Source of the DNA: an uncultured Candidatus Peribacteria bacterium
GTDB lineage: Bacteria; Patescibacteriota; Gracilibacteria; Peribacterales; Peribacteraceae
Assembly (NCBI GenBank): GCA_964373065.1
Contig: CAYJSJ010000004.1
Coordinates: forward strand, 1-57,052
Length of the DNA: 57,052 nucleotides
Direction: 5' to 3'
The position numbers were made by a program, and so were the translations under genes. The notes beneath the pieces were generated by a model. That model made no database searches. It was not told the DNA's origin and saw only the letters and a program-made list of their open reading frames with translations. Positions 1,278-54,489 of this stretch are shown here, piece by piece (position 1 is the stretch's first letter; the number at the start of each line of letters is the position of its first letter).

Positions 1278-2162
1278 CTATCTCTTCGCCCTCCCCTGTC
1301 GCACGATCACTTCTGCAAGCAGCCCGAAGAGCCCTATCTGAAGCCCTGTAAGCAACATAAGAATTTCGGAATCCGAAATATTTCGCTCAACTACAAGAGA
1401 CCGGAACGCAAGGAGTACACCAATAACGATGAGGAGTAAGGACGGGATGGCAAAAAATCTGAGTGGGCGGAAGTACGTTGTGATCCTGACGATGAGACTC
1501 AAGAAACCTGCGAAATTTTTTATGCCGTTGAAACCGGAGGAAAGAGAGCTTTTCCCCTTCCGTTTGAAGTAGTCGATGGGAACAAATTCCACGATGTAGT
1601 CGCTCGTGAGGGCGGCGAGCGTGAGGGTGAGCGTGAAGGAAAATTTCTGCGGAAAGAGATGCATAAACTCTTCCGCCATCGACTTCGTAAAGATGCGCAT
1701 GCCGGAGTTGTTGTCCGGGATGTTCATACCTGTCAACATATTTGCAAGCATGGCGACGATCGCTTTGGCGGGTTTTCGGATCCATGGGATTTGCGCGCCT
1801 TTCTTCGTACGCGCACCAATGACCATGTCTGCGTTACGCGTACGTAACGTTTGGAGGAGCTGCGGGAAATCCGCGATGGGGTACGTTCCGTCTGCATCGA
1901 TAATTGCTATCAGCTCGCCTTTGGCTCTGCGCAGTCCTGTCTTCATGGATGCGCCGTATCCTACATTTCTTGGATGCGTTATCACATGGATATCGGGAAA
2001 ACGAAGGCCGGAAAGGATTGCTGTTGTTCTGTCCGTACTGCCGTCGTTGATGACCAGTATTTCAAACAATTCTCCGATGCCGGAGAAGACTTCGTACGCC
2101 TTCGTTACGGTTTCCTCGATCGCTTCTTGCTCATTGAAGACGGGGATGATGAGGCTGATCAT
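1278..2162 (-). CDS. GT2 polyprenyl-phosphate glycosyltransferase (GtrB/ArnC/DPM1-like) with C-terminal TM helices
   Basis: 294 aa. Motifs: IIPVFNE, VINDGSTDRT, IIDADGTYP, and a C-terminal hydrophobic pair (FFAIPSLLLIVIGVLLAF..LLTGLQIGLFGLLAEV). Confidence 0.9.
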   Translation of the reverse strand: MISLIIPVFNEQEAIEETVTKAYEVFSGIGELFEILVINDGSTDRTTAILSGLRFPDIHVITHPRNVGYGASMKTGLRRAKGELIAIIDADGTYPIADFPQLLQTLRTRNADMVIGARTKKGAQIPWIRKPAKAIVAMLANMLTGMNIPDNNSGMRIFTKSMAEEFMHLFPQKFSFTLTLTLAALTSDYIVEFVPIDYFKRKGKSSLSSGFNGIKNFAGFLSLIVRITTYFRPLRFFAIPSLLLIVIGVLLAFRSLVVERNISDSEILMLLTGLQIGLFGLLAEVIVRQGRAKR

Positions 2163-2210
2163 AGGGTTGGGGTTAGGATTATAACGTACTTCCCGACCCT
2201 ACCCCTATCC
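2163..2210. repeat. G-tract / C-tract imperfect inverted repeat filling the whole spacer between two co-oriented genes
   Basis: AGGGTTGGGGTTAGGATTATAACGTACTTCCCGACCCTACCCCTATCC. It has five CCC tracts with 2-3 nt spacers. The loop reads TATAAT on the transcribed (minus) strand. Confidence 0.7.
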
Positions 2211-4256
2211 CTATCCCTTCATTATGAATTTTATTTCCCGTAAACCTCTGCGTTTCGTCGGTTTACTGAGGTATTTCCAGGTTTTACGTAGGGCATTGAA
2301 CAGAGGGCCGACAATGGAGATCGGGAGGTGCTCGATGACCAATCGAGCGATGCTCAAGCGTCCGATGCCAAAGAAGAACCGCAGAATCCATTCTATGGCG
2401 ATGCGCGATGCCGGGATCGATTCCGGCCGGTAGCCGTAGTCTGGTGGAATCTGTTTCCACCCATTTCTGATAGATGATCCGCGCTTTTTAAAGTCCAGCA
2501 TGTGGCCGTGCATATCGAGAGCATCGTCGATGGTGATTTCTTCAAGCGTGAGGATCTTTTTTCTTGCCATCGATTCGAGGAGTTCCACCGATCGCGGATT
2601 GCGCCCAAGGAGTACGGAGTAGCCCCCTCCTTTGTTTTCATAGTTCGGACTCCACGCATCGCCGACGGAAATATCGGTGAGTTCATTGGTAAAATCCGCA
2701 AGTTGCAGCGATCCATTCGTAATGAAGAAGGGGATGAGGTAGTTATAGTGAAACTTTTCCGCCTTGAGGACTCTCCCGTCTTTGAGCGTGATCTCCAGAT
2801 GCCCCGGCCACTGCCCTGCGCGAAATTTGAGTTCGGTAATTTCCGTTTCAGTGGTCACTCCGTGCGAGCGGAGGAAGCTTTTTATCGCTGCAAAGGTCAT
2901 CTGTGTTCCCGTATAGGGACCAAGAACGTAACGAATGTTTCTGACGCTCGGGTGACCCATCATTTGGAGTTTCCTGATGCCGGCAACTTGATCGGGAAGC
3001 CCCACGTACGCGAGCGGACCGGTTTCACGCTCGAGTTTTGCGAGGATCGTATTGACCGGAGTAAGGCTGTAGACGCTCTGTGCGCACGCAAGAATCTCCT
3101 CCCGCGAGCGGGCGATCACCGGCCTTGCTCTCCATGGGACATCTCTCCCCATCTGCAAGCACACGGCACCTGTGATCTCTCCGGTTTCCAGAAGATGGAT
3201 CAGCGTCTGCGATATCACACCACCCGACGCGCCGTTTCGGCGGATAGCTTCGTCGGTCGCATAACCGATGTAGGCTTTCTGGACGATTCCACTCAGAAAG
3301 TTCTCCGGCGTCTTGCTAAAGACAAACTTATTAAGTGCGGGATAATTGCAGTACCTCGCAGGGCATCCCTCATATGCGGCTTGTGGCACGGGTTTCGAAG
3401 TATCTGTGCGACGGACAATCAGCTCTCCGCTTAAAAGCTCTTCATATTGCAATGTTCCCTCGCTCACTCCAACGCACGTGCCGTCGCCGGTTTCGAGGCC
3501 GGGGTCGATGACTTCTGCCTTGAGTTTTTCCCAATACGGATCAAACATCTTTTTCCTGCACACAAACGTTCTGCGGAGAGCGATGCATCGGAGCATCTGT
3601 TCAGGAAGCATTTTTTCCAGCCAAGAACCAATCACCAAGAACCACTTCGGTCCCGCAGGAACGAGTACGCATGTGCGTTCCACACTAACATCAAGTCCCG
3701 CTGCTTCAATCGCTCCGAGGATTTCTCTGCGCGGTACCATGCGGTGCGGACCTTCACCGTGATCGAGTTTCAGTCTCGCCGAGAGCCAATGTACGGGTTC
3801 CCAGAGGACATTTGGGGTCGTGAGTACTAGTGTTCCGAGGGGCTTGAGCATCCTAGAAAGTTCAGTGATGAACGCCTGCGGCCACGGGACGTGTTCGAGC
3901 GTTTCGTAGCAGAGGATACAATCAAACGAAGCATCGGCGAATGGTTGTCGGAGCGTTGTCATTACCGAGACGGTGGCATCAACGGCGTTTGCCTTCAGGT
4001 TCTTCTCTGCGCGTTCCTTGAAGGTCTGTGCCATCGCAACGCAGGTGAACCGTGCCGTTGGATATTTCTTCGAAAAGAACACTGTGCCGTTTCCCGTGCG
4101 GCAGTCGATATCGAGCACGTGCGCATGCTCCGAGATCGTAAAGAGCGGGGCGCTGTCTCTGAACCTGCGCATATAGGAATCGATTTTTGCGTTCTGAACG
4201 TCGTAGTTCGGGGAGTTATCCCAGTGATCAGCCACGTCTTTGAGTGTCCAACTCAT
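2211..4256 (-). CDS. Fusion protein: class I SAM-methyltransferase (N-terminal) + F420 hydrogenase/dehydrogenase beta subunit (FrhB/FdhB)-like domain (C-terminal)
   Basis: Track ORF 2211..4694 was trimmed to the ATG at 4256 (MSWTLKD...), because the upstream part overlaps gene 4274..5113. MTase motifs: VLDIDCRTGNG, ILCYETLEHV. FrhB-like motifs: GASGGVISQ, YVGLPDQVAGIRKL, DISVGDAWSP, GYSVLLGRNPRS. Confidence 0.8.
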   Translation of the reverse strand: MSWTLKDVADHWDNSPNYDVQNAKIDSYMRRFRDSAPLFTISEHAHVLDIDCRTGNGTVFFSKKYPTARFTCVAMAQTFKERAEKNLKANAVDATVSVMTTLRQPFADASFDCILCYETLEHVPWPQAFITELSRMLKPLGTLVLTTPNVLWEPVHWLSARLKLDHGEGPHRMVPRREILGAIEAAGLDVSVERTCVLVPAGPKWFLVIGSWLEKMLPEQMLRCIALRRTFVCRKKMFDPYWEKLKAEVIDPGLETGDGTCVGVSEGTLQYEELLSGELIVRRTDTSKPVPQAAYEGCPARYCNYPALNKFVFSKTPENFLSGIVQKAYIGYATDEAIRRNGASGGVISQTLIHLLETGEITGAVCLQMGRDVPWRARPVIARSREEILACAQSVYSLTPVNTILAKLERETGPLAYVGLPDQVAGIRKLQMMGHPSVRNIRYVLGPYTGTQMTFAAIKSFLRSHGVTTETEITELKFRAGQWPGHLEITLKDGRVLKAEKFHYNYLIPFFITNGSLQLADFTNELTDISVGDAWSPNYENKGGGYSVLLGRNPRSVELLESMARKKILTLEEITIDDALDMHGHMLDFKKRGSSIRNGWKQIPPDYGYRPESIPASRIAIEWILRFFFGIGRLSIARLVIEHLPISIVGPLFNALRKTWKYLSKPTKRRGLREIKFIMKG

Positions 4257-4273: not shown

Positions 4274-5113
4274 TTATCCCTTCTCCTTCAGGAAATAATA
4301 TCCACCCAATAATCCGCTCACGATAATGCTGAGAAACATCAAAAACGCCAATGCGACGGATTGCTCCGCAGTTACGCCGTACGGGGAAAGAAAAAAGACG
4401 AGTGCTGCGTCTCTGGTACCGAGGCCGGAGGGGGCGATGGGCAGCAGTGAGAGCATGCCTGCAAACGTCAGAACTGCTATGAGGATCGGTATCATCGTAG
4501 CGATCCCCACGGCACGTGCCAGGAGAATCGCCCACACGAAATGGACGGCCAAGGAGCAAAGCGTCCAGACGGCGATGGGAAGTAGGGATTGTGGCGGCAG
4601 GTATTTGGTGACGAAACCCAGGTGATTCTTGTATGTAATAACTATCACGATTCCGATCACGATTCCGACCGCAGCCAAGGCAGTCCAATACCATCCGAAC
4701 AGAATTCCAGTTCCTACAGCAGCAATCACACCGATAAAGACGGTATCAATCACACGGTCGAGTATCGTTATGGTAATAGCAGACACCATCTTCATACCTG
4801 TCGCCTTCAGATAGGCCGCCTTGCCCATCTCTCCAATCTTCCCCGGCATGATGCACGCCAGAAAGATTCCCACATTCACGATCTCCCAGTGCCTCCGAAA
4901 CGGGAGCGATATTCCCGAAGTGTGTACCAGCACTTTCCATCGCTGTGTTTTACAGAAATAGATCAGGAAGACGAGCGGGAAGGAAATGGCGAGCAGCACG
5001 ATGTTTGCCTGCATAAGCTCCCCAATCAGCACTTGCATATCGATTGTTGCTAAGATCCACACAAAAAGCAGTACGCCGATCAGTTTGAGCAGATGGTGAG
5101 TAGGGTTTTTCAT
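4274..5113 (-). CDS. Polytopic membrane protein, lysyl-PG-synthase-TM / 'flippase-like domain' family
   Basis: 279 aa with about 8 hydrophobic helices. The N-terminus has the pattern typical of this family (KLIGVLLFVWIL..., QRWKVLV, PGKIGEMGKAAYL). Confidence 0.7.
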   Translation of the reverse strand: MKNPTHHLLKLIGVLLFVWILATIDMQVLIGELMQANIVLLAISFPLVFLIYFCKTQRWKVLVHTSGISLPFRRHWEIVNVGIFLACIMPGKIGEMGKAAYLKATGMKMVSAITITILDRVIDTVFIGVIAAVGTGILFGWYWTALAAVGIVIGIVIVITYKNHLGFVTKYLPPQSLLPIAVWTLCSLAVHFVWAILLARAVGIATMIPILIAVLTFAGMLSLLPIAPSGLGTRDAALVFFLSPYGVTAEQSVALAFLMFLSIIVSGLLGGYYFLKEKG

Positions 5114-5147: not shown

Positions 5148-5900
5148 ATGCTTGCAAAAGCCAGTCAGTACTGGATTCGTACTATAGAAGATGGGCAAGG
5201 ATACACGTCAGTATCTTTGGCTGCATTCCAGACAATGTTGAAGAAGGTTGTGCATTTTGTTCCGTACAAGGTATTGCTGCGGTATACAAAACCAGAGGCA
5301 ACCGTTCTGGATGCCGGTTGCGGGTGGGGGCTCGCAAGTTTTGCTCTCGCCGCTGAACACAGACATGTGACTGCTTTGGATATTTCCCCAAAGCTCATTG
5401 CACATCTGAAAACATTGCAATTGGCATTGGGGCGCTTGTACCAAACACATCTTACATTAACCATTGGAGACATTTTCGATTTTCCGATGACGGATAAGAC
5501 AATCGATGCGGTGTATAGCGACGGCACGTATGAGCATTTTCTTCATGATGATGAGCGGAAAAAAATTCTGCAGAATATGTATGCAGTCTTACGGGAAAAG
5601 GGAACGGTGATTATTACCGTGCCAAATGTACACAATCCATTTTTTTCGCTAGCCGTCGACCACAAAATGCCACCCATGTATCCCTTTACCCTTCAGAGTC
5701 TCTCAACGGAGCTTGTCGAAGCCGGTTTCCACGTAGTGGAACACGGGTTTTATTTTGTAAATCCCGGGTATGCGCAATGGACGAAAGCTTCATGGATGAT
5801 CCCCTGTATAGCAGTTGCAAACGTTGTATTTCCACTGCTTCCTCGTTGGGTCAAAGCAATCTTTGGCGTGCATTTCTACTGTGTTGCCCACAAAAGGTAG
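5148..5900 (+). CDS. Class I SAM-dependent methyltransferase
   Basis: 250 aa. Motif I is VLDAGCGWGLASFALA; also VYSDGTYEHF and GTVIITVPN. Confidence 0.85.
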   Translation: MLAKASQYWIRTIEDGQGYTSVSLAAFQTMLKKVVHFVPYKVLLRYTKPEATVLDAGCGWGLASFALAAEHRHVTALDISPKLIAHLKTLQLALGRLYQTHLTLTIGDIFDFPMTDKTIDAVYSDGTYEHFLHDDERKKILQNMYAVLREKGTVIITVPNVHNPFFSLAVDHKMPPMYPFTLQSLSTELVEAGFHVVEHGFYFVNPGYAQWTKASWMIPCIAVANVVFPLLPRWVKAIFGVHFYCVAHKR

Positions 5901-5938: not shown

Positions 5939-7693
5939 TTACAATGCATACATGCTAAACCTTCCGTCGTTGTATATTTCTGCAGCATCTAACGGTATCT
6001 GTGGGTTCCATCGCGATTCCTTATCCTTCAATATGTATTGTACGTGATATTTTTTGAGATACACCTTGTAGTTTCTGCGTATTGCGCGGTGACGCACGAA
6101 CATCTTTTGTATAAATTTCTCTCCACCGATAAAGTCTATCTCCTCAGTCTTCTTCCATTCACCGGGCAATGCTTTTCCTGTAAGACCAAAAAAGAATGCT
6201 TTCACGCTCCCAAGGAGCGAGGGATCCGGATACATGTTTGCGTAGGTCATTGCATGCTCTGTGCTAACCCCGCGGAGCATATCAACATTTTGCCGCATAA
6301 ACTCTGCATCGAAAACATCAACATAGTAGACGAGAAATCGTTCCATCAGTTCGTCATCTGGTATCACATGAAGACCCGCTTTTTTACTGAAGAACACAAA
6401 GTTCTCCGTGTAGAGCGGAATAAGCGCGCTCAAGCGTTCGTCTGCAAGAAAAACACTATCGCGGATATTTTCCACATTAATGAAAGCAAACAATGCATCG
6501 TATCCTCGTTGCAGCTCGTGGAGCTCAAGAATCTTTTTGTACTGCGGTATGTAGGAGAAGGCATTCATACGTATGAATGCCCGATTTGTTGCGGTGAAAA
6601 CAAGCGCAAACAGGCAAAATCCGATGATACATCTTTCCAAGAACAGTGTTCGCCTTTTCAATGACACAGAAAATACAGTGATGCCGATAGCTGTCACCAA
6701 AAGACCCAGTAACCAAGGGTGTGTAGGAAAATCCGTCTCTTTCCCTGTAAGAGTGTTACTTGTTGCGGTGATGAGTATTGCAGCGCCTAGCAGCAGCAGC
6801 AGCGTTTCTCCGTGCGAGAGTTTTCCGCGCACACTCAGAAACAACAAAGTAATTACGCTGACAATAGTGTATTTATTATTGAGGACTGTCAGCGGCAGAA
6901 TGGCGCGTGTTTCTATCAGACTGTTACGCATGCTCAGAAGTATCGACTCAGGGTCATGGAGAAGTGTTGCTATGACGAGTATCTGTGGAAGGACAAGAAG
7001 AACAATGCAGAGCCACATGGCAGATAAGTACAGAATCATACTGCGATCTCTCTTCCACACAGCCCACACAGAGAGCAGACCCACTGCGGAGAAATTTTGC
7101 ATCCATAGATGCGGGTAGAGATAGAATGCAATTGCACAGAGCGCGCCAAGCACTACGTAGCGATTTTTTTGTCCTGGGTGTTCAAGAACACCAAGAAGTG
7201 CGATCATAAAGAGTCCGAAGACGGGAAACACTGTCTGCAAAACTGCGGGACGCAAGATGGAGTTGGAGACTGATGCAACGGCAAGCACGGCGATGCCAGC
7301 AGAGAGCAATCTGTCGTTATTGGTTAGCTTTAGATTGAGTACATACACTATGACACCGGTAATTACTCCGTACAAAAGAGCATTGACGAGGAAGACAGTA
7401 TTGATGGGGAGCCCCATGATTCCTGGGAGTGCGCTGATCCACAGTGGAAGAACCATGGCTGGCAGCATCGCAGTATGATATTCGAGAATGTAAGGATTCC
7501 CTGCCCAGATGTCGCCGCGCAGGACGGCTTGTATGAGTGTTAGGTAATAGAGAGAGTCTGACTCAAGCTGCGTGAGTACTGGCGGAAGAAAACTGCCGAG
7601 CATGATTTTACTGAAGATAAACGGCACGGCGAGTGCGCTTGCAGAACCTGCCAATACGATTATCCATGCGGTAGTGTTTCGAATATTCATCAT
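5939..7693 (-). CDS. Large polytopic membrane protein with a soluble C-terminal ~190-aa domain; GT-C-like (speculative)
   Basis: 584 aa. About 12 hydrophobic segments are followed by a hydrophilic tail, and an acidic ESD lies in the first predicted loop. There is no close family match by eye. Confidence 0.6.
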   Translation of the reverse strand: MMNIRNTTAWIIVLAGSASALAVPFIFSKIMLGSFLPPVLTQLESDSLYYLTLIQAVLRGDIWAGNPYILEYHTAMLPAMVLPLWISALPGIMGLPINTVFLVNALLYGVITGVIVYVLNLKLTNNDRLLSAGIAVLAVASVSNSILRPAVLQTVFPVFGLFMIALLGVLEHPGQKNRYVVLGALCAIAFYLYPHLWMQNFSAVGLLSVWAVWKRDRSMILYLSAMWLCIVLLVLPQILVIATLLHDPESILLSMRNSLIETRAILPLTVLNNKYTIVSVITLLFLSVRGKLSHGETLLLLLGAAILITATSNTLTGKETDFPTHPWLLGLLVTAIGITVFSVSLKRRTLFLERCIIGFCLFALVFTATNRAFIRMNAFSYIPQYKKILELHELQRGYDALFAFINVENIRDSVFLADERLSALIPLYTENFVFFSKKAGLHVIPDDELMERFLVYYVDVFDAEFMRQNVDMLRGVSTEHAMTYANMYPDPSLLGSVKAFFFGLTGKALPGEWKKTEEIDFIGGEKFIQKMFVRHRAIRRNYKVYLKKYHVQYILKDKESRWNPQIPLDAAEIYNDGRFSMYAL

Positions 7694-7702: not shown

Positions 7703-8521
7703 TTATTCTTCCATACAGAAGATGACAGCGTTCGCAAACTGGTAGGGTGTGCCGAAGCCCGTGGCAACGGCTTCCTTTTGTGAGACTTCTTCCCACCGAT
7801 GCGCGGATGTATGTTTCAGGTAGTACTGATGTGCACATAGTCGCCGTTCACAGAGATCACGCACTGCGTCGGGGTTATAGCCTACGGGAATCGTCACGAA
7901 CATACGGCCGTTTGGCTTCAGTAACGTTTTTAAATGCTGCACAGCCCGTACAAATTTTGCCGGGTCTTTCGGGTGCTCGTCGAATCCGACATGCTCGAGC
8001 GTGGAAATACTGATGATAAGATCGTACGGTTCGTTTGGACGGAAATCGACGACATCTTCATGGATGACCCCGTCTCCTTTTTCATATTTATCCAGCACCT
8101 CCCTCGGCAGATCGGTGTAGTGGGAGAGCACGTTACCGACTTCCAGAATGCGTTTGCCTTTTGCTTGTTTCAACATATCGATCGCCACGGCGACCTCGAC
8201 TGCGCGTTCGTTGAGAAAGGTCGTGTTGTACCAGTGGCAGAAGTAGTGATAATCCTTTCCGCGAAACCGGAATGTTTTGCGGCCCATTGTTATCCTATAG
8301 ATGGGAGTAGACAGAACCTGCGTGATCAATGTGATCATCATCGCGATGGCAGAGAAGAGACCTTTGCGTTTCCACGTCTCCCGAAATCGGGCAAAGACGA
8401 CGCCGAACGTGCCGATGAGTCCGTCATATGCGGCGTGCATTGCCGCACTGTACCGTGCGGTATCGAAGCGAGACAAGCTGCAGAGACTTGGGAGAACTCT
8501 TCCGATATGCTCCTCGTACAT
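7703..8521 (-). CDS. Membrane-anchored SAM-methyltransferase-like protein
   Basis: 272 aa with one TM helix (LFSAIAMMITLITQVL). Rossmann-like motifs: ILEVGNVLSHY, YDLIISISTLEHV, GRMFVTIP. The start is uncertain; M28 and M61 are alternatives. Confidence 0.6.
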   Translation of the reverse strand: MYEEHIGRVLPSLCSLSRFDTARYSAAMHAAYDGLIGTFGVVFARFRETWKRKGLFSAIAMMITLITQVLSTPIYRITMGRKTFRFRGKDYHYFCHWYNTTFLNERAVEVAVAIDMLKQAKGKRILEVGNVLSHYTDLPREVLDKYEKGDGVIHEDVVDFRPNEPYDLIISISTLEHVGFDEHPKDPAKFVRAVQHLKTLLKPNGRMFVTIPVGYNPDAVRDLCERRLCAHQYYLKHTSAHRWEEVSQKEAVATGFGTPYQFANAVIFCMEE

Positions 8522-9707: not shown

Positions 9708-9781
9708 TTCTTCGATCGAATTTCCATCTTTTTCTGCTGCGATTACCTGTGCACCTCGTCCATTGGTGGTATCGTACCGGC

Positions 9782-10693: not shown

Positions 10694-10697
10694 CCCT

Positions 10698-15095: not shown

Positions 15096-15104
15096 ACGTT
15101 CATC

Positions 15105-16118: not shown

Positions 16119-16137
16119 ACCGAAATAGCGTACTAGA

Positions 16138-17322: not shown

Positions 17323-17324
17323 CG

Positions 17325-34000: not shown

Positions 34001-34035
34001 TGTTCGGAGTCTCTTGCCTCGGTAGTATATGCCTG

Positions 34036-35758: not shown

Positions 35759-35763
35759 GGCGC

Positions 35764-39625: not shown

Positions 39626-39695
39626 ACCCCCAGTATAGTCAGATCGTCTCTTAGGTACGAGTGAACCTATCACTTTCTTCTGCTAGGCTTTCGGT

Positions 39696-47968: not shown

Positions 47969-48274
47969 ATGGCGAAGAATCATCAGTTGCGCATTTTCTG
48001 GATGGTATGTTTCGTGTGTTTTCTTGTGCTTGCAAAGCAGATTTCTGTCGTGCTGCCGCTCTATACGGACGCGGCGTTCAGGCAGCGTACACGCGCGATT
48101 CTGCAAGCGACTGCTCTGCGAGAAGGATGGATGTTCTCTGGCCTCTCCATCCGCTCCATCAATCGCGATACGGCGATGCTGCACTATCGATCCTACATGC
48201 GCGGCAGCGATCCCGTTTCCTGCCATCTGATCTCGTTCTCTTCCGGTACGCTTTCTCCATGCCCCAGCGAGTAA
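47969..48274 (+). CDS. Small membrane-anchored hypothetical protein
   Basis: 101 aa with an N-terminal TM helix (IFWMVCFVCFLVLA). It looks more protein-like than the R/C/A-rich N-terminal extension of track ORF 48007..49488 in the overlapping frame. Confidence 0.45.
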   Translation: MAKNHQLRIFWMVCFVCFLVLAKQISVVLPLYTDAAFRQRTRAILQATALREGWMFSGLSIRSINRDTAMLHYRSYMRGSDPVSCHLISFSSGTLSPCPSE

Positions 48275-49488
48275 TATTCACGCTTCGGCACGTTCTTACT
48301 GCAGTGCTTCTGCAGGCGTTTGCCGTGCTTCTGGCGCTCTATCAAAACATCGGTTCCGTGCGGACGGATGAAGCGAAGTACCTCCTGAATATTCCGTACC
48401 CGCATCCGCCGCTTGCGCGGGCGGTGATCCATAGCCTCGAATGGATGCCCTATCAGGAACTTTTTTGGCGCGTCGTTTTTGCGTCGCTTCTGGTGCAGTC
48501 GGTGTGGCTTGTTGTTCGTCTCGCGAAAAATCTTTCTTCCGATTATCGGCTAGCACTGGCGGGCTTTTGGATCTTCTCCGCTTCCGTTCTGTTTCAATCG
48601 GGAACCATCATGATGGCTCCGCTGACTGCGTTGCAGGGGTTGGTGTTTGTCTGGTTGCTTACGGAATTGGCGACGCAGAGGAGAGATGGTTGTCGGTTGT
48701 CGGTTGTCGGTTGTTATGCGGACTGGATTCCACTCTTTTGGTTAGGGTCGCTCTTTACCGCCTACCAAGCGATTCTCTATCTGCCGATCGTTGTAGCGAT
48801 CGTTTGGCGTATGAACATGCGTCCCTTTATGAAAGGGCTTGTGGTATTCGTTCCGGTACTACTCCTCTCGCTGTACATTCTCGGCAACCCTCTCGCGATA
48901 TCCAGTTTCCTGAGCGCGGGCGGACAGAACGCGGCACTTTCGCCTGCTCTTCTCTTTACGCAGGTGCTTACCGCATGGCTTTTTTCCGGGAGCGTCGTCT
49001 TGAGCGTCGTCGGGGTTATGGGTATGTGGCGCTCCCGCAGTATCCCCTTACTGATCAGTACCGCGATGGTTGTTCTGTTTCTTGCTGTTTCGTACCGTTC
49101 ATACTATGCGATTCTCTTTCTTCCACTCCTCGTCGGCGGCGTGGCAGCTTCTCCGGTCATCTTGCGAAAATCCGCTACGCTCTTGGCAATGCAGATTGTT
49201 GCTGCGACTGCAATGTTTGCGCATGCGCATTTGGAATTTTCAGAGTCTTCCGCCCGCAAAGTGATGCGTGTACTCAATGCGCAGCCTGGGGAAGGCATCG
49301 TCCTCGTTTCCGGTACGTTTGGTCATGAATGGCAGTACGAGAGCACGTCTCCCATGTACCGCTACCGCTCAGCACTGCTCTCTAGAGCAAAAGCAGTGGT
49401 GTGCCTTGAGGCATGTCCGGAAGTTTCCGGATATGGTTTCTCTCCCATCGAAAAGATCTCGCAAGACGTGTGGGTACGGAGAGATTGA
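48259..49488 (+). CDS. GT-C fold membrane glycosyltransferase (PMT_2/ArnT-like, compact)
   Basis: Trimmed to the ATG at 48259 (MPQRVIF...). About 10 TM helices. The first loop reads RTDEAKYLLNIPYPHPPLARAV (DE...PPL pattern). Confidence 0.65.
   Translation: MPQRVIFTLRHVLTAVLLQAFAVLLALYQNIGSVRTDEAKYLLNIPYPHPPLARAVIHSLEWMPYQELFWRVVFASLLVQSVWLVVRLAKNLSSDYRLALAGFWIFSASVLFQSGTIMMAPLTALQGLVFVWLLTELATQRRDGCRLSVVGCYADWIPLFWLGSLFTAYQAILYLPIVVAIVWRMNMRPFMKGLVVFVPVLLLSLYILGNPLAISSFLSAGGQNAALSPALLFTQVLTAWLFSGSVVLSVVGVMGMWRSRSIPLLISTAMVVLFLAVSYRSYYAILFLPLLVGGVAASPVILRKSATLLAMQIVAATAMFAHAHLEFSESSARKVMRVLNAQPGEGIVLVSGTFGHEWQYESTSPMYRYRSALLSRAKAVVCLEACPEVSGYGFSPIEKISQDVWVRRD
48688..48715 (+). repeat. Heptanucleotide tandem repeat GGTTGTC x3 + GGTTGTT inside the GT-C coding sequence
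   Basis: Copies at 48688-48694, 48695-48701, 48702-48708 and 48709-48715. It encodes ...GCRLSVVGCY... in a predicted loop. Confidence 0.9.
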
Positions 49489-49671
49489 AGATTGAAAATT
49501 AAAAATTGAGAATTACGAAATCCATCGATCACACAAACAGAGTCGCGTTTAATTTTTGATCTACCTATCGCTTGATAGCTCCTAGGGGGAATCTTCAATT
49601 TTCAATTTCTTTTTAATTCGATTTGATAGCTCCTAGGGGGAATCTTCAATCTTCAATTTTCAATCTTCAAT
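49484..49671. repeat. Composite spacer: perfect 17-nt inverted repeat whose arms contain both convergent stop codons, plus a perfect 28-nt direct repeat (51-nt period) and CAATYTT micro-repeats
   Basis: ATTGAAGATTGAAAATT at 49484-49500 pairs with AATTTTCAATCTTCAAT at 49655-49671. TTGATAGCTCCTAGGGGGAATCTTCAAT occurs at 49572-49599 and 49623-49650. Confidence 0.9.
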
Positions 49672-50638
49672 TTCCTATCTGGTAGTACTTCTTATACCAT
49701 TCCACGAATTTCGGAACTCCCGTGTTGATTCGAGTTTTTGGATCATAGTTGAGCATCTTTTGTGCCTTTGAAATATCTGCAGCAGTCGATACCACGTCTC
49801 CTTGTTGCATGGGGAGGAATTCCTTTTTGCATTCCGTGCCGACTGCGCTTTCTACAGCACGAACGTAATCCATCAGTTCTTCGGTGTGCCCTGCTCCAAG
49901 ATTGAAGATCTCGCTTGCGTAGTTCTTGTCGATCGCCGCCATCACACCTTGCACGATATCATCGATGTACGTGAAGTCGCGCTGCATCTTCCCCTCGCCG
50001 AATATCTGCACGGGTTTTTTGTTGACGATCCAATCGGTAAAAAGAAAGATGGCCATATCGGGTCGGCCGTAGGGGCCATAGACGGTAAAGAAGCGAAGCC
50101 CGGTCGATTGCAGATCGTAGAGATCGTGATAGACGTGCGCTTGGAGCTCGTTCGCCTTCTTCGTCATGCCATAGAGCGAAACCTGCGCGTCGGTATTGGT
50201 CGTTTCTTTGGAAGGAAGATCGAGGCTGTTGCCGTAGACGGAGCTCGATGAAGCATAGATGAGTCCTTCGACTCCCCGCTCCCTGCAGAGCTCAAGGACA
50301 TTGCCGAACCCGATGACATTATCCTGCAAAAAAATGTGCGGATTCTCGATCGAGTGGCGTACGCCTGCTTGCGCTGCGAGGTGGCAGACGCGCGTGGGGG
50401 TGAGGGAGGTTCCCAGAAGGTCAAAAGCGGGGAGAAGATCTTTTTTCTTGCTGATGTCACCGCGCATGAGGGTGAAATTTTCATATTGTTCCAGCAGTGC
50501 ATTTCTGGCGAGCTTCAGTTTAGGATCGTAATATTCGTTGAAGTTATCGAAGCCGATCACATGATCCCCCCGCTCAAGCAGAGCTTTCGAGACATGGAAG
50601 CCGATGAAGCCCGCCGATCCTGTCAGAAGGATGTTCAT
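49667..50638 (-). CDS. UDP-glucuronate 4-epimerase-type extended SDR
   Basis: 323 aa. Motifs: ILLTGSAGFIGFH, FDNFNEYYDPKLK, YGMTKKANE, RFFTVYGPYGRPDMA. Confidence 0.88.
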   Translation of the reverse strand: MNILLTGSAGFIGFHVSKALLERGDHVIGFDNFNEYYDPKLKLARNALLEQYENFTLMRGDISKKKDLLPAFDLLGTSLTPTRVCHLAAQAGVRHSIENPHIFLQDNVIGFGNVLELCRERGVEGLIYASSSSVYGNSLDLPSKETTNTDAQVSLYGMTKKANELQAHVYHDLYDLQSTGLRFFTVYGPYGRPDMAIFLFTDWIVNKKPVQIFGEGKMQRDFTYIDDIVQGVMAAIDKNYASEIFNLGAGHTEELMDYVRAVESAVGTECKKEFLPMQQGDVVSTAADISKAQKMLNYDPKTRINTGVPKFVEWYKKYYQIGN

Positions 50639-50714
50639 AGTTACACAGACACAGAGTAGATACGATTGTTATCGGTGAATGACCCTGAGTGCCATCGAAG
50701 GGTGAGAAGGATGT

Positions 50715-52025
50715 TCATACAATGCCAATTCCATGATACGTAAGTCCTGCGTTGGTCACCTCTATTGGATCGTAAATATTCCTTCCGTCGAAGAGCGCAT
50801 TTCCTTTCATGACTGTTTTTAATTTCTTAAAATCCACTCCGCGAAACTCGTCCCATTCGGTCAGTACCATGACGGCATCTGCGTCTTTGGCTGCATCCAT
50901 CATGTTCGCTTTCCATTGGATATCTTTCCCCAGAAGCTTTCGAGCGTTCTCCATCGCGATCGGATCATGCGCCTGTACGGTGTGGCCGGCTTTGAGGAGC
51001 ATGGGGATCAGATCGAGGCTGGGAGCCTCGCGCATATCATCCGTTCGAGGTTTGAAGGCAAGTCCCCAGACCGCTACGATCGCCTTTTTCGGCAGCGCTT
51101 TGAGAAGTGCCTGGAAATACCGCATACGTTGGCGCTGATTGATTTCGTGCGTGGCTTCCACGAGGGGAAGAGGAACGCCAGTATGGCGACCTAAGGCGAT
51201 CAATGCCTTCACGTCTTTCGGGAAGCAGCTCCCGCCATAACCGATCCCTGCGTGCAGGAATCGCGGCCCGATGCGGTCGTCCATGCCCATGCCCCGTGCG
51301 ATATCGCGAATGTTCCCCCCCGTTGCTTCGCAGAGCTCGCTGAGCATATTGATGAACGAAATCTTGTTTGCGAGAAAGGCATTACTCGCGTACTTCACGA
51401 TCTCCGCACTCTCTCTGCTCATCCACACAATCGGTTTCGTCGTGCGCGTCAATGGCTTGTAGATTTCCTCCATCACTGCACGCGCTTCGGGATCACCATT
51501 GACGCCTACGACAATGCGGTCGGGTTGCATGGTGTCATGTACTGCATGGCCCTCGCGAAGGAATTCAGGATTACTCACCACCGGAATCACATATGACACC
51601 TTGCGATCTTTCAGTATTTTTGCAATCAGTGTTTCACACTGCTTGCCCGTGCCGACGGGAACGGTAGATTTGTTGACGAAGATACACTGATGATCGGCAA
51701 GCTTTGCAACGGACTCCGCGACGATGAAGACCGCTTTGAGATCGGAGGAGAAATCTTCGTTCGGGGGCGTGGCTACGGCAGAAATGACAACATCCGCTTT
51801 GGGGAGGGCATCTGCGAGAAGGGTGGTGAAGGTGAGGCGCCCTGCGGAGAGGTTTCGTTTCAAGAGTTCCGGAAGTTCCGGTTCGTACATCGGGCTTACG
51901 CCCCCTTGCAGCGTTCGGATTTTATCCGCATCTATGTCCACTCCCACTACCTCGTGGCCGAGTTCGGCGAAGCAGACCGCTGAAACGAGCCCTACGTAGC
52001 CGGTACCGATGACGACAAGCTTCAT
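50715..52025 (-). CDS. ugd: UDP-glucose 6-dehydrogenase
   Basis: 436 aa. Motifs: MKLVVIGTGYVGLVSAVCFAELGH, GYGGSCFPKDV, GLAFKPRTDDMREAP. Confidence 0.93.
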   Translation of the reverse strand: MKLVVIGTGYVGLVSAVCFAELGHEVVGVDIDADKIRTLQGGVSPMYEPELPELLKRNLSAGRLTFTTLLADALPKADVVISAVATPPNEDFSSDLKAVFIVAESVAKLADHQCIFVNKSTVPVGTGKQCETLIAKILKDRKVSYVIPVVSNPEFLREGHAVHDTMQPDRIVVGVNGDPEARAVMEEIYKPLTRTTKPIVWMSRESAEIVKYASNAFLANKISFINMLSELCEATGGNIRDIARGMGMDDRIGPRFLHAGIGYGGSCFPKDVKALIALGRHTGVPLPLVEATHEINQRQRMRYFQALLKALPKKAIVAVWGLAFKPRTDDMREAPSLDLIPMLLKAGHTVQAHDPIAMENARKLLGKDIQWKANMMDAAKDADAVMVLTEWDEFRGVDFKKLKTVMKGNALFDGRNIYDPIEVTNAGLTYHGIGIV

Positions 52026-52133: not shown

Positions 52134-53108
52134 ATGATAGCTATCATGAGTATTCTTGTAACCGGCTCCACCGCCTACGATGTCCTTCTGGGGTATGACG
52201 GTTCCTTCGCAGACGCCATCGACGCGGGTTCCCTCGACACACTTTCTGTGAGTTTCTTCTCGCCCCGTTTTGCGAAGCACCATGGCGGAACGGGCGCAAA
52301 TATTGCTTGGAATATAAAGCTGCTCGGTGGCGATCCGCTTCTTGTTTCCACTGTCGGTTCCGATGGAGCGGAGTATAAGGCGCTGCTTACGAAGCGCGGT
52401 ATCGATACTGCGTATCTGGAAGTATGCCCCGATGCCGTGACCGCGACGGCGATCATTTGTACCGATACGAGCGAACGGCAGATCGCGTTTTTCCACCCCG
52501 GAGCGGACGGCTTGGGGACGTTTCCGGATCTCACAGATCGCCGCAAAGAAATTTCTTACGCCATCGTTGCGCCCAGAAACGCACTCCTCATGATGGAAGC
52601 TGTACACCGGTGCGAGAAACTCTGCATCCCGTATCTCTTTGATCCAGGGCAACAGATCATCGCGCTGAGTAACGATGAACTGCTGTTTGGCATCCAGCAC
52701 GCTTCCGGCGTCATTACCAATTGCTACGAGTGGGAACTTCTGAGCGGGCGTCTCCATATGGCCGAAAGAGACGTTCTCGCGTTTGCATCCATGCTCATCG
52801 TAACGCGCGGCGAGCATGGAGCTCTGTGTCACACAAAGGATGGGACACTGGAAGTCGCCGCATGCAAAGCCAAGAAACTCATCAATCCCACCGGTGCGGG
52901 CGACGGCTTCCGCGCAGGGCTCCTGATGGGTATTGCAAGCGGCTGGAGCGTACGTGACGCCGTTCGTTTGGGGAATGCGGTGGGGTCCATGGTCGTCGAG
53001 ATCGAGGGAACGCTCCTCGACACGCTTGATCTGGAGGCGCTCCGAGCTCGGGCGGAGGAGACGTACGGAGAAAAATTACCATTATATAGTCAAAGCACTA
53101 AATCCTAA
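52134..53108 (+). CDS. PfkB-family carbohydrate/nucleoside kinase (adenosine-kinase-like by context)
   Basis: 324 aa. Motifs: GGTGANIAWN, NPTGAGDGFRAG (the PfkB C-terminal signature). Confidence 0.8.
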   Translation: MIAIMSILVTGSTAYDVLLGYDGSFADAIDAGSLDTLSVSFFSPRFAKHHGGTGANIAWNIKLLGGDPLLVSTVGSDGAEYKALLTKRGIDTAYLEVCPDAVTATAIICTDTSERQIAFFHPGADGLGTFPDLTDRRKEISYAIVAPRNALLMMEAVHRCEKLCIPYLFDPGQQIIALSNDELLFGIQHASGVITNCYEWELLSGRLHMAERDVLAFASMLIVTRGEHGALCHTKDGTLEVAACKAKKLINPTGAGDGFRAGLLMGIASGWSVRDAVRLGNAVGSMVVEIEGTLLDTLDLEALRARAEETYGEKLPLYSQSTKS

Positions 53109-53141
53109 ACATTAAATCCTAAACATTAAATCCTAAACAAA
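53100..53141. repeat. 14-nt tandem repeat AAATCCTAAACATT x3 (reverse complement contains TTAGGATTTA), beginning inside the kinase stop codon
   Basis: Copies at 53100-53113, 53114-53127 and 53128-53141 (the last ends AA). It is followed by TTGAGTT x2 (53164-53177) and the near-inverted GTTTAGAATTT. Confidence 0.9.
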
Positions 53142-53238
53142 TCCCAATACTCTATTTTGTACTTTGAGTTTTGAGTTTGTTTAGAATTTCGGGTTTCGTG
53201 CTTCGGATTTTTCACGAGTCCTGCTACTCTGCCGCAGC

Positions 53239-54489
53239 ATGAGTTTCGTAAAAGATCCTTCATTAGCCGCCCAAGGCATCATGAATTTGGAGATTGCCGA
53301 AAAGCGCATGGGGGCACTCATGGAAGTGCGCAAACGTTTTATCAAGCAAAAGCCCTTCAAAGGACTCACGATCGGCATGGCGTTGCATGTTACCAAAGAG
53401 ACCGGAGTGCTCGTCCGGACGCTTCGGGATGGCGGCGCGAAAGTCGCAATCACCGGCTGCAATCCGCTCTCGACACAAGATGATGTCGCCGCGGCGCTTG
53501 CAAAAGAGCAAGACATCAAGGTGTGGGCGTACAAAGGAGAGACCACCGCGGACTACTACAAGTTTCTCAACGCCGTGATCGACGAAAAGCCGCAGATTAC
53601 CATCGACGACGGGTGTGATCTGGTGACCGAAATCCACACGAAGCGTACAGATGCGCTCAAGGGAATGATCGGCGGGTGCGAGGAGACGACAACCGGCATC
53701 ATCCGCCTCCATGCGATGATCAGGGATGGTGCGCTCAAGTGCCCCATGATCGCCGTGAACGATAACAAAACAAAGCACCTCATGGATAACTACTACGGAA
53801 CGGGGCAGTCGACCTTCGACGGCATTCTGCGTTCAACAAATCTCCTGATCGCGGGGAAGACCGTCGTCATCGTCGGGTATGGGAGCTGCGGGAAGGGGGT
53901 GGCGATGCGCGCAAAGGGGCTTGGTGCGCAGGTGATTGTTACGGAGGTCGATTTCTTCGCTGCGCTGCAGGCGGCGATGGACGGGCATCGCGTGATGACG
54001 ATGGAGGAGGCGGCGCCGATCGGGGATCTCTTTGTCACAGTTACGGGGAACTTCCACGTTATCCGCATGGAGCACATGGAACAGATGCGCGATGGCTCGG
54101 TGCTCTGCAACTCCGGTCACTTCGATAACGAAATTGATCTCAAATCTCTCGGGAAAAAAGCGAAAAGCAAGCGCAGAGTTCGCCATTACCTGGATGAATA
54201 TGTTCTGAACGGAAAGGTGATCTACATCGCAGGGGAAGGACGGCTCGTCAACCTCGCATCTGCAGAAGGCCACCCGAGCGAAGTGATGTCGCTTTCCTTC
54301 TGCGGGCAAGCGCTCGCGTGCGAGTACCTCGTGAAGCACAAAGGAAAGCTCAAAAACGAGGTGATCACGCTGCCGTCGGCAATCGACGAGGAGATCGCGG
54401 GACTGCAGCTCGCTGCCATGGGGCTTTCCATCGACACCCTCACAAAAGAACAGAAGAAGTATCTTGCTTCGTGGCAGGAGGGGACGTAG
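53239..54489 (+). CDS. ahcY: Adenosylhomocysteinase (S-adenosyl-L-homocysteine hydrolase)
   Basis: 416 aa. Motifs: HVTKETGVL, ITGCNPLSTQDDVAAAL, DDGCDL, EETTTG, VVIVGYGSCGKG, GHFDNEI. Confidence 0.95.
   Translation: MSFVKDPSLAAQGIMNLEIAEKRMGALMEVRKRFIKQKPFKGLTIGMALHVTKETGVLVRTLRDGGAKVAITGCNPLSTQDDVAAALAKEQDIKVWAYKGETTADYYKFLNAVIDEKPQITIDDGCDLVTEIHTKRTDALKGMIGGCEETTTGIIRLHAMIRDGALKCPMIAVNDNKTKHLMDNYYGTGQSTFDGILRSTNLLIAGKTVVIVGYGSCGKGVAMRAKGLGAQVIVTEVDFFAALQAAMDGHRVMTMEEAAPIGDLFVTVTGNFHVIRMEHMEQMRDGSVLCNSGHFDNEIDLKSLGKKAKSKRRVRHYLDEYVLNGKVIYIAGEGRLVNLASAEGHPSEVMSLSFCGQALACEYLVKHKGKLKNEVITLPSAIDEEIAGLQLAAMGLSIDTLTKEQKKYLASWQEGT

Follow-up and report, generated by a model that had tools for sequence, protein, structure and literature searches.

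How could a bacterium of the candidate phyla radiation (CPR) build a complex surface glycan from a locus that encodes both cytoplasmic sugar-activating enzymes and polytopic membrane glycosyltransferases, with no classical export or priming gene among them? The question is raised by a stretch of 57,052 nt from an uncultured Candidatus Peribacteria bacterium (GenBank assembly GCA_964373065.1, contig CAYJSJ010000004.1, positions 1–57,052), here called the window, in which a long island of glycan genes follows a 16S rRNA gene. The prevailing view is that CPR bacteria live attached to other cells; to our knowledge, next to nothing has been learned of their surface chemistry. From profile scans, structure prediction and comparison with relatives, the island is read here as a cell-surface glycan locus of Peregrinibacteria that probably works in a hybrid manner: a nonulosonate glycan would be made on a lipid in the cytoplasm, flipped across the membrane and decorated outside by glycosyltransferases of the GT-C type. 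This reading is held with moderate confidence.

Polytopic GT-C-type proteins of the island

Families were called by Pfam and NCBIfam profile scans of all open reading frames (ORFs), alternatives included, with bit scores quoted against equivalog or gathering cutoffs; membrane segments were taken from a hydropathy scan. Four polytopic proteins, TM584, TM542, TM462 and TM493 (beginning at 5939, 29157, 39696 and 48259; Table 1), were each predicted to contain 9–12 transmembrane (TM) helices. No pairwise likeness among the four was detectable by BLASTP.

The structures of TM584 and TM493 were modeled with AlphaFold 2 and compared with the PDB by Foldseek. For TM584, a model built on a 12-homolog alignment reached a mean local confidence (pLDDT) of 84 and a predicted TM-score (pTM) of 0.84, and the top 26 PDB matches were all GT-C enzymes (PglB at 3.6e-6, DPY19, AftA, STT3, ArnT and Emb). 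An aspartate, D46, is invariant in the first loop, right after the first helix. For TM493 (33-sequence alignment; pLDDT 92, pTM 0.90), matches were obtained to ALG12 (2e-4, TM-score 0.65), Pmt4, AftD, ArnT (TM-score 0.64) and STT3, and an invariant motif, 'TDEAKYL..IPYP.PP', which includes D37-E38, follows the first helix. TM584 and TM493 are accordingly predicted to have the GT-C fold, and TM542 and TM462 are assigned to the same class by similarity to PMT_2, so that the four GT-C-like proteins of an initial annotation, made from the letters alone, were all retained. PMT_2 was matched by 7 of 23 members of the TM542 family (best 1.5e-7) and not by TM542 itself, and TM462 carries 'WVDESLF' directly after its first helix. 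Searches of PDB sequences with TM493, TM542 and TM462 gave no significant match.

Other functions were considered for these proteins. A Wzy or WaaL role was ruled out for TM584 and TM493, whose Foldseek matches were all GT-C with no WaaL or Wzy among them. TM584 was also ruled out as an oligosaccharyltransferase, given that it lacks WWDxG despite PglB and STT3 being top structural matches; the WW[DE] motif was found in none of the four proteins.

In a word-indexed search of 5.8 billion proteins, 11 homologs of TM584 were found, both named ones being from Peregrinibacteria, and a profile search of the wider family reached 1104 clusters. Some distant members (P0190, P0224, P0235 and P0275; 810–850 aa) have an N-terminal extension of ~240–280 aa, which in P0190 is a DPM1-like family 2 glycosyltransferase (GT2; E 5e-12 to GT2a of the island), making it a natural GT2::TM584-family fusion; the extension of P0224 is not GT2-like. 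Among the 27 homologs of TM542, one bears the name GT39, and those with an organism name are all from Peregrinibacteria or Patescibacteria. More than 479 homologs were found for TM493, and all named ones are from Peregrinibacteria.

TM584 and TM493 stand in the two end blocks of the island, each with a GT2 and a small flippase-type protein. On the left, GT2a has its best NCBIfam matches in AglJ, PpgS and ArnC, all sub-threshold, and is 57–69% identical in the related loci L007, L011 and L012. The same block encodes an MprF-type flippase-like protein (4274–5113), missing from the initial inventory, which scores 65.5 bits on the TIGR00374 flippase-like domain (cutoff 43). On the right, the GT2 is fused to GtrA (56–58% identical in relatives) and is followed by a small ORF, s101, with an N-terminal hydrophobic segment. 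ORFs of 99–102 aa occupy the same position in L016 (9705–10013), L017 and L018 (9714–10013), with the position kept and the sequence kept weakly, and s101 may be a partner subunit of the TM493 enzyme.

A fixed-position locus of Peregrinibacteria

The 16S gene at the left edge of the window is 91.7 and 90.8% identical to those of L007 and L008, two loci from Peregrinibacteria metagenome-assembled genomes (MAGs). Homologs of TM584 occur at nine loci in GTDB species representatives, and 9 of 9 are from Peregrinibacteria, Peribacteria or Patescibacteria-group MAGs. By its 16S and protein homologs the host is a member of the Peregrinibacteria; a CPR-type host had been proposed before, and the 16S identity of 91–92% and the homologs of TM584, TM542 and TM493 agree with it.

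Between 1278 and 52025, 47 genes were resolved at a coding density of 96%, and all identifiable products, with competing ORFs scanned as well, are glycan-related. The island had initially been drawn to 54489. Its glycan content stood, but PfkB and S-adenosylhomocysteine hydrolase (SAHH; 52134–54489) belong to a flank conserved in relatives, and therefore the glycan genes proper stop at 52025. Because the genomes of relatives measure 1.17–1.25 Mb (L016 contig; PMC4736985), the island of ~51 kb represents ~4% of a genome of ~1.2 Mb.

In L007 the order GFO/PseG-H/PseI/CysNC/CysD/methyltransferase/TM584/flippase-like/MT-FrhB/GT2a/16S matches the window at 49–82% amino-acid identity. The adjacency of GT2 and 16S is shared by L007 and L008, and in a Ca. 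Peribacter genome the 16S gene comes directly after a GT2. The left-block genes GT2a, MT-FrhB (a methyltransferase fused to an FrhB/FdhB-like domain), flippase-like and TM584 were also found in L011 and L012; the flippase-like gene travels with GT2a and TM584 in relatives and shows no linkage to the Kps-like genes of the interior. The right block, in the order GtrA/TviB/FAD enzyme/SDR/GT2-GtrA/small ORF/TM493/SDR/Ugd/PfkB/SAHH/PolX (SDR, short-chain dehydrogenase/reductase), recurs at 42–81% identity in L016 (a 1.17-Mb contig) and L018 (GCA_964601225.1) and was also seen in L017; no TviB or GtrA match was obtained in the right block of L018. In GCA_964601225.1 the left and right blocks lie ~48 kb apart on a single contig.

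The interiors differ. That of Ca. Peribacter holds a TagF-like Glyphos_transf gene and another NeuB set; those of L011 and L012 hold a Kps2/NeuB2/aldo-keto reductase/CMP-transferase module and TM542; and in L016 the variable part beside the conserved right block encodes a Wzx-type flippase (Polysacc_synt; 142–1512, minus strand), a GT2 and a 385-aa hydrophobic protein. Judged by gene order, the island is therefore a lineage-wide locus: its ends are conserved, its middle is variable, and it recurs in a fixed position with the 16S gene on one side and PfkB-SAHH-PolX on the other.

The contig is metagenome-derived and GC at third codon positions is lower in several genes (MT1, TM584 and u284), as might be expected of an assembly chimera or of a recent import foreign to a CPR host. 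However, the GC content is even (0.45–0.59 in individual genes) and does not break where the island meets its flanks, and independently assembled contigs from four other runs (L001, L006 and L019–L022) reproduce its segments and junctions. Moreover, the end blocks, the 16S adjacency and the ~48-kb span recur in other Peregrinibacteria genomes, and the organism-named homologs of TM584, TM542 and TM493 are all from Peregrinibacteria or Patescibacteria. The chimeric contig that the initial annotation had guarded against thus left no sign in assembly, composition or synteny, and a chimera or foreign import is considered extremely improbable.

Cytoplasmic synthesis and modification genes

Three NeuB-family synthases (12511–13593, minus strand; 23834–25060 and 34036–35079, plus strand), 28–34% identical to each other, all matched NeuB models. 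The first is an equivalog of PseI (478 bits, cutoff 340) in a pseudaminic-acid operon in which PseC (460 bits, cutoff 423) and PseG (220 bits, cutoff 154) also reach equivalog level. The GNAT domain fused to PseG scores 41.6 bits on PseH (cutoff 93), and the SDR at 17325–18314 scores 55 bits on PseB (cutoff 408); enzymes analogous to those of the PseB, PseH and PseF steps appear to be present, though outside the equivalog families. NeuB2 (248 bits on NeuB; called as 408 aa in L021) and NeuB3 (167 bits) fall under the equivalog cutoffs of PseI and NeuB alike. The module of NeuB2 includes a KdsC-like HAD domain (114 bits) and an Aldo_ket_red reductase and has a cytidylyltransferase and a PtmA-like SDR beside it; together these genes suggest a pathway via a phosphorylated ulosonate. 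The two cytidylyltransferases, CMP1 and CMP2 (35072–35758, plus strand; PseF 179 bits, cutoff 205), are 31% identical.

Three candidate transferases are cytoplasmic. The best PDB matches of Kps1 are to KpsC, and weak; it is 38% identical to its paralog Kps2 at 22289, whose homologs adjoin NeuB2 homologs in L011 and L012. The third is a family 4 glycosyltransferase (GT4; Glycos_transf_1, 149 bits) that has no TM helices and matches synthases of the lipoteichoic acid (LTA) anchor and of GlcN-PG weakly. For acetamidino formation, HisH (TIGR01855, 219 bits against 105) and WbuZ (270.5 bits, marginally under the cutoff of 299.7) accompany WbuX, and for synthesis of 3'-phosphoadenosine 5'-phosphosulfate (PAPS) the CysD and CysN-APS kinase proteins (APS, adenosine 5'-phosphosulfate) are 74–82% identical in L007.

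Most of the initial inventory was borne out by the profiles. This applies to the three NeuB-family synthases; to the two CMP-transferases, at 27431–28234 (minus strand) and 35072–35758, by the CTP_transf_3 and PseF models; to PAPS synthesis with a sulfotransferase (CysD, CysN with APS kinase, Sulfotransfer models); to the acetamidino set of WbuX, HisH-like and HisF-like enzymes, complete with a marginal WbuZ score; to one GT4 and two KpsC/S-like proteins as the cytoplasmic glycosyltransferases (Glycos_transf_1, PF05159); to Gmd, Ugd and a UDP-HexNAc dehydrogenase, the announced UDP-GlcA epimerase being a GalE/TviC-like SDR; to two polyprenyl-phosphate GT2s, one with two C-terminal TM helices and one fused to GtrA; and to three GtrA modules (8520–8903; 43612–44016, by phmmer; and the fusion at 46775–47866). 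Two entries were kept in part: of the PseC/PseG-H set, PseC and PseG stand at equivalog level and the GNAT domain lies below the PseH cutoff, and of six S-adenosylmethionine (SAM) methyltransferase domains, four are strong and two only weak (7703–8440 and the C-terminal half of 25057–26361).

No Pfam or NCBIfam match to Wzx, Wzy/WaaL, ABC-transporter, Bac_transf or Glycos_transf_4 families was obtained among the 47 genes and alternative ORFs of the window, 57 kb of a genome of ~1.2 Mb, and here too the profile scans agreed with the initial finding of no Wzx, Wzy, ABC exporter or priming transferase. No KpsM/T/E/D export genes were found in the window either, though it holds two Capsule_synth domains (30.9 and 41.7 bits), and no homolog of the L016 Wzx turned up in the window or in any other of the loci fetched.

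Proposed assembly and its alternatives

From the gene identities, the predicted GT-C folds, the synteny and the host, we infer donor sugars, an order of steps, an export route and an acceptor as follows. Each end block would be a 'three-component' unit of extracytoplasmic glycosylation, in which a membrane GT2 would attach a sugar to polyprenyl phosphate, the lipid-linked sugar would cross the membrane by way of a small flippase (GtrA, the MprF-type flippase-like protein or both), and a GT-C enzyme, TM584 in the left block and TM493 in the right, would pass it to an acceptor outside. Conserved synteny in relatives and the natural GT2::TM584-family fusion back this logic. The right block would bring its own nucleotide-sugar supply (Ugd, the TviB-like dehydrogenase, SDR epimerases and a flavoenzyme resembling UDP-galactopyranose mutase, UGM), and the donor of its conserved GT2-GtrA/TM493 unit may be a furanose or a modified uronic sugar.

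The interior would make up to three CMP-activated ulosonic acids, the first being pseudaminic acid, probably acetamidino-bearing, and the second arising via a phosphorylated intermediate; it would add genes for a GDP-6-deoxy-amino sugar, the two KpsS/C-like proteins, the GT4, two GT-C proteins, PAPS synthesis with the sulfotransferase, and methyltransferases. A short nonulosonate-containing glycan would be assembled on a lipid acceptor while still in the cytoplasm; it would receive its sulfate and methyl groups on that side as well and then be flipped to the outside, the flippase-like protein being one candidate for the export step. This glycan, or the final protein or wall acceptor, would be further decorated outside by the four GT-C enzymes; an S-layer protein, a pilin, a wall polymer and a glycolipid are candidate acceptors.

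Nonulosonates are activated as CMP-sugars in the cytoplasm, and we know of no polyprenyl-phosphate-nonulosonate donor. Since CMP-sugars are cytoplasmic and three cytoplasmic transferases are encoded in the island, something would be built inside and exported, and the hybrid is favored because the ulosonates are CMP-activated, the candidate transferases are soluble and sulfation needs cytoplasmic PAPS. The initial annotation had instead proposed stepwise decoration outside the membrane, not block assembly. Its logic of lipid-phosphate donors, GtrA and GT-C enzymes was strengthened by synteny and the fusion, but the exclusion of block assembly oversteps the evidence, and the CMP-sugars, the two KpsS/C-like proteins with the GT4, the MprF-type flippase-like protein and the Wzx of L016 weigh against decoration outside only. 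A strictly stepwise scheme, in which GT-C enzymes would extend a protein or a polymer of the wall by single sugars taken from lipid-phosphate monosaccharides, would account for four GT-C-type proteins, three GtrA modules and two GT2s, and for the lack of Wzx, Wzy, ABC exporter and priming transferase among the 47 genes. It fits poorly with two CMP-transferases, with soluble KpsS/C-like proteins and a GT4 without TM helices as the only plausible ulosonate transferases, and with PAPS-dependent sulfation, which must be cytoplasmic too, and is judged quite improbable.

If block assembly is accepted, the glycan could also follow a conventional polyprenyl-diphosphate pathway (Wzx/Wzy-like or ABC) whose priming transferase, flippase and ligase or LCP protein lie elsewhere in the genome, with the GT-C enzymes adding branches. 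The window is 57 kb of ~1.2 Mb and encodes a cytoplasmic GT4 and KpsS/C-like transferases, the L016 island has the Polysacc_synt flippase, the GT2 and the 385-aa hydrophobic protein, and the Ca. Peribacter island has the TagF-like Glyphos_transf gene, all of which would suit such a pathway. None of its genes is in the window, however, and the L016 Wzx stands alone among the fetched loci. A conventional Wzx/Wzy or ABC locus directly beside the island, which the initial annotation had named as a competing explanation, was not seen: both flanks are housekeeping genes conserved in relatives, and none of its genes is adjacent on the right. This pathway is regarded as rather unlikely, while still a serious possibility.

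The chain might alternatively be anchored on a glycerolipid, in an LTA-like glycoconjugate started on phosphatidylglycerol or diacylglycerol by a KpsS/C-like protein or the GT4, exported by the MprF-type protein and decorated by the GT-C enzymes. The KpsS1 protein transfers pseudaminic acid (Pse), shares 30% identity with E. coli KpsS and is a relative of KpsC; phosphatidylglycerol is the lipid on which KpsS primes (PMC12887879). The flippase region of MprF is matched by the flippase-like protein, the GT4 has its weak matches to LTA-anchor and GlcN-PG synthases, no polyprenyl-diphosphate priming enzyme is in the window, and three-component glycosylation of LTA is established, CsbB/GtcA/YfhO offering an analogy (PMC7389260, PMC8035078). 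Yet the linkage of the flippase-like gene to GT2a and TM584 in relatives fits the flipping of the GT2a product better, the likeness of Kps1 and Kps2 to KpsC is weak, and the scheme is wholly conjectural; its probability is put low. A fuller version, for a nonulosonate-rich, sulfated and methylated glycoconjugate without polyprenyl-diphosphate priming or Wzx/ABC export, would have four GT-C families (at least two of them lineage-specific) finish the chain, possibly with furanose or uronic donors supplied through the UGM-like enzyme. In it, the hypervariable interior would set the serotype by which an episymbiont attaches to its host or evades phages; this version too is considered improbable.

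Against the hybrid itself stand several points. There are only two GT2s for four GT-C enzymes, and the donor sugar of every GT2 and GT-C enzyme is inferred. The GT-C status of TM542 and TM462 comes from weak sequence similarity, and hhalign profile-profile comparison of the TM542 family with each other GT-C family was not significant. No hydrolysing 2-epimerase (NeuC/LegG) is found in the window, and with NeuB2 and NeuB3 under all equivalog cutoffs their products are unassigned. No acceptor, priming enzyme or dedicated exporter for the cytoplasmic glycan was identified in the window, and the literature searched holds no biochemical or structural glycan data on any CPR organism.

Gene content and flanks

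The features of the window are listed in Table 1.

Table 1. Genes of the window in order of position, with the evidence for each call.
Feature	Coordinates	Strand	Evidence and remarks
16S rRNA gene, 5' part	1..910	-	Rfam SSU_rRNA_bacteria 899 bits; left island boundary; runs off left end
GT2a, polyprenyl-phosphate sugar synthase type	1278..2162	-	Glycos_transf_2 113 bits; two C-terminal TM helices
MT-FrhB, SAM methyltransferase fused to FrhB/FdhB-like flavin/FeS domain	2211..4256	-	Methyltransf_11 + FrhB_FdhB_N/C
MprF-type 'flippase-like' membrane protein (LPG_synthase_TM)	4274..5113	-	PF03706 105.6 bits; ~9 hydrophobic segments
MT1, SAM methyltransferase	5148..5900	+	Methyltransf_25/11
TM584, predicted GT-C-fold glycosyltransferase, no Pfam family	5939..7693	-	AlphaFold + Foldseek
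Weak methyltransferase-like protein, N-terminal TM helix	7703..8440	-	Methyltransf_23 27.7 bits; called as 245 aa
GtrA1, small 4-TM flippase-family protein	8520..8903	+	GtrA_DPMS_TM 78 bits
MT3, SAM methyltransferase	8928..9707	-	Methyltransf_11 87 bits; 77% identical in L007
CysD, then CysN fused to APS kinase (PAPS synthesis)	9749..12503	+	PAPS_reduct 186 bits; GTP_EFTU + APS_kinase
Pseudaminic-acid operon: PseI, PseG-GNAT fusion, GFO oxidoreductase, PseC, extended SDR dehydratase	12511..18314	-	Pfam/NCBIfam
WbuX-type N-acetyl sugar amidotransferase (acetamidino formation)	18364..19629	+	TIGR03573 311 bits, cutoff 203
Small ORF u87, 87 aa	19781..20044	+	Called in independent contigs L021, L022
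Kps1, KpsS/C-like (Capsule_synth) cytoplasmic transferase 1	20041..21480	+	PF05159 30.9 bits
MT4, SAM methyltransferase	21501..22268	-	Methyltransf_25 78.5 bits
Kps2, KpsS/C-like (Capsule_synth) cytoplasmic transferase 2	22289..23746	-	PF05159 41.7 bits
NeuB2; KdsC/Kdn-9-P-phosphatase-like HAD fused to weak MTase_24 domain; aldo-keto reductase	23834..27425	+	Second ulosonate module
CMP1, CMP-ulosonate cytidylyltransferase 1	27431..28234	-	CTP_transf_3 1.2e-19; PseF model covers 1-222, 95 bits, cutoff 205
Short-chain dehydrogenase, PtmA-like SDR	28274..29080	+	adh_short_C2 2.9e-39; PtmA 124 bits, sub-threshold
TM542, divergent PMT_2-type GT-C candidate	29157..30785	-	9 TM helices
HisH-like glutaminase + WbuZ/HisF-like cyclase (acetamidino formation with WbuX)	30855..32316	+	
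u284, unnamed 284-aa soluble protein	32449..33303	+	
PAPS-dependent sulfotransferase	33266..34054	-	Sulfotransfer_3 64 bits, Sulfotransfer_1 49 bits; no TM helix
NeuB3, CMP2 (PseF-like), GT4 glycosyltransferase	34036..36888	+	Third ulosonate module
Extended SDR, 4,6-dehydratase/epimerase type	36958..37992	+	Epimerase 168 bits; RmlB/LegB-like, sub-threshold
LegC/perosamine-synthase-like aminotransferase + WbuC-like cupin	38088..39673	-	DegT 402 bits
TM462, PMT_2-like GT-C candidate	39696..41084	+	PMT_2 24.8 bits, E 2.8e-5, cutoff 26.1; 9 TM helices
Gmd, GDP-mannose 4,6-dehydratase	41176..42225	+	TIGR01472 516 bits, cutoff 415
TviB-like UDP-HexNAc 6-dehydrogenase	42253..43527	-	NDP-sugar dehydrogenase 401 bits; TviB 397 bits, sub-threshold
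GtrA2, small flippase-family protein	43612..44016	+	phmmer 8e-11 to GtrA1; L016 homolog carries PF04138
FAD enzyme resembling long (eukaryote-type) UGMs	44045..45673	+	NF005546 800 bits
Extended SDR, RmlB/UXS/GalE-like	45752..46675	-	Epimerase 162 bits; sub-threshold NCBIfam matches
GT2 fused to GtrA (polyprenyl-phosphate sugar synthase + flippase module)	46775..47866	+	Glycos_transf_2 120 bits, GtrA_DPMS_TM 61 bits
s101, small membrane-anchored ORF, 101 aa	47969..48274	+	Overlaps TM493 start
TM493, 409 aa, predicted GT-C-fold glycosyltransferase, no Pfam family	48259..49488	+	AlphaFold + Foldseek
GalE/TviC-like SDR (candidate UDP-uronate 4-epimerase) + Ugd	49667..52025	-	Epimerase 172 bits; UDPG_MGDP_dh three domains
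PfkB kinase, SAHH, PolX	52134..56172	+	Pfam; right flank, same order in L016, L017, L018

Several gene boundaries were resolved by homology. A single 537-aa gene at 27431–29044 (minus strand) was ruled out, since an SDR lies on the opposite strand at 28274–29080 and the CMP-transferase is the 3' part only. Gene calls on independent assemblies (L019) choose an antisense ORF there (27410–28225, plus strand, 271 aa) that has no homology, and the minus-strand product alone matches CTP_transf_3, PseF and the paralog at 35072; because automated calls choose the homology-less ORF, public annotation probably misses one CMP-transferase. Codon-usage strand scoring discriminated poorly, disfavoring even the CMP-transferase, and homology was used instead. 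Long N-terminal extensions of TviB, NeuB2, TM493, MT-FrhB and HisH were likewise ruled out, by the GtrA match, independent calls and NCBIfam alignment starts, with the full-length TM542 homologs also used against them. TviB (66% identical in L016) starts at ~43527, not 44169, and its apparent extension concealed GtrA2, a separate gene. The repeat TAGGGTTAGGGC, in 2.3 copies, lies between the divergent TviB and GtrA2 genes.

MT-FrhB, whose FrhB/FdhB-like domain is of the F420-hydrogenase beta type, was called as 681 aa on independent contigs and, at 65–68% identity in L007, L011 and L012, is among the best-conserved left-block proteins. Among the GDP- and UDP-sugar genes, the aminotransferase scores 352 bits on the LegC family, under the cutoff of 420, and the cupin 28 bits on WbuC; they are 68 and 57% identical in Ca. 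Peribacter, where they stand beside Gmd, GtrA and TM584 homologs. The FAD enzyme is 66–69% identical in L016 and L018, and its closest PDB entries are UGMs (~2e-12), NF005546 itself being named only 'hypothetical protein'. Ugd scores 439 bits as an NDP-sugar dehydrogenase, and the SDR/Ugd pair is 58–64% identical in relatives. No family match was obtained for u87 in Pfam or NCBIfam, and u284 gave no Pfam, NCBIfam or PDB match.

In the right flank, SAHH could serve as a supply enzyme for the methyltransferases, yet it is a lineage-wide neighbor of the locus. The segment 55219–57041 encodes the PolX-family polymerase and an overlapping convergent EAL-domain protein, and in L018 an IS200-type Y1 transposase (17225–17713) lies between SAHH and PolX. 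Beyond the other edge of the locus, complete 16S genes in L007 (15169–16634) and L008 (17123–18589) are followed by no 23S gene within 3–4 kb in an Rfam gathering search, and rRNA genes appear to be unlinked in these two loci. Short tandem repeats occur in intergenic spacers (43527–43554, 36908–36940, 49479–49515, 49641–49680 and 53099–53139); the others in the island are heptamers in 4–5 copies, and a 14-mer in 2.9 copies follows PfkB.

Comparison with known systems

The components of the island are of known kinds. In three-component systems, the polyprenyl-phosphate sugar that a GT2 produces is flipped by a small protein and then handed on outside the membrane by a GT-C enzyme (PMC11127046, PMC8035078). 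With the O-antigen-glucosylating GtrA/GtrB/GtrC, with ArnC/ArnEF/ArnT, with CsbB/GtcA/YfhO of LTA and WTA (wall teichoic acid), with PpgS/Rv3632/Rv3779 and with the GT136 pentofuranose systems, the island shares linked GT2s with C-terminal TM helices, GtrA-family proteins and GT-C enzymes, as well as auxiliary SDR epimerases that diversify the donor. It differs in having four GT-C proteins, two of them in families without a Pfam model whose organism-named close relatives are all from Peregrinibacteria or Patescibacteria; in the MprF-type flippase-like protein beside or instead of GtrA in the left unit; and in the UGM-like flavoenzyme of one unit. Moreover, its units form the conserved frame of the locus and are not an accessory, often phage-borne, modification.

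PseC, PseG, PseI and PseF-like enzymes, acetamidino formation of the WbuX/HisH/HisF type and KpsS-like candidate ulosonate transferases are shared with clusters for Pse and legionaminic acid that serve flagellin, S-layer or capsule glycans (the Pse clusters of Campylobacter and Helicobacter, the Tannerella forsythia O-glycan with Pse5Am7Gra, and A. baumannii K2 with KpsS1; PMC5378307, PMC6120980 for T. forsythia), and methylated sugars of the T. forsythia glycan match the methyltransferases of the island. In contrast to these clusters, the island has three NeuB paralogs and linked PAPS-dependent sulfation, lacks equivalog-level PseB and PseH as well as Maf, Wzx and an oligosaccharyltransferase, and resides in a CPR bacterium that is monoderm and whose genome measures ~1.2 Mb. 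Group 2 capsule loci (KpsS/KpsC with KpsMTED) likewise combine two Capsule_synth-family proteins with CMP-ulosonate synthesis, whereas the island is without KpsM/T and KpsE/D, its ~480-aa proteins are weakly KpsC-like and its host lacks an outer membrane.

Archaeal N-glycosylation loci (Agl; legionaminic acid in Halorubrum, PMC6137143) share AglJ/AglD-like synthases, HisH/HisF-type acetamidino enzymes (AglXYZ), nonulosonates, and methyl and sulfate modifications in a strain-variable island; the four GT-C proteins here lack the WWDxG of AglB/PglB/STT3 and the host is bacterial. In the same lineage as the window, heavy investment of Peribacteria in envelope sugars (perosamine, rhamnose and sialic acid) was described together with S-layer proteins, sortase, twitching-motility genes and 1.25-Mb genomes, without the island, its 16S-adjacent position, the GT-C families, multiple NeuB proteins or sulfation (Anantharaman et al. 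2016, PMC4736985).

Significance

The initial statement that no such combined system had been characterized holds for the combination, which is not described in the literature searched, and is to be qualified for the investment in envelope sugars and sialic acid, noted in 2016 (PMC4736985). That literature contains no description of the island architecture in its fixed position, of three NeuB proteins with sulfation and acetamidino formation, of the GT-C families or of the MprF-type partner; no paper tying CPR organisms to pseudaminic acid was found in it, nor was one listed by searches for related sugars or for glycosylation machinery in CPR organisms.

Together with its counterparts in related genomes, the locus offers a well-delimited target of ~50 kb, conserved at both ends and variable between them. 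It is predicted to direct acidic, sulfated, methylated and acetamidino-bearing sugars to the cell surface, and it includes at least two GT-C families without a Pfam model (TM584 and TM493). The flipping of lipid-linked sugars is unsettled even for GtrA, and the GT2::GT-C fusions and the MprF-type partner could inform it. Should host recognition or resistance to phages depend on these glycans, the variable interior would correspond in CPR bacteria to an O-antigen or K locus and would offer a handle for typing, for lectin or antibody enrichment and for glycoproteomics.

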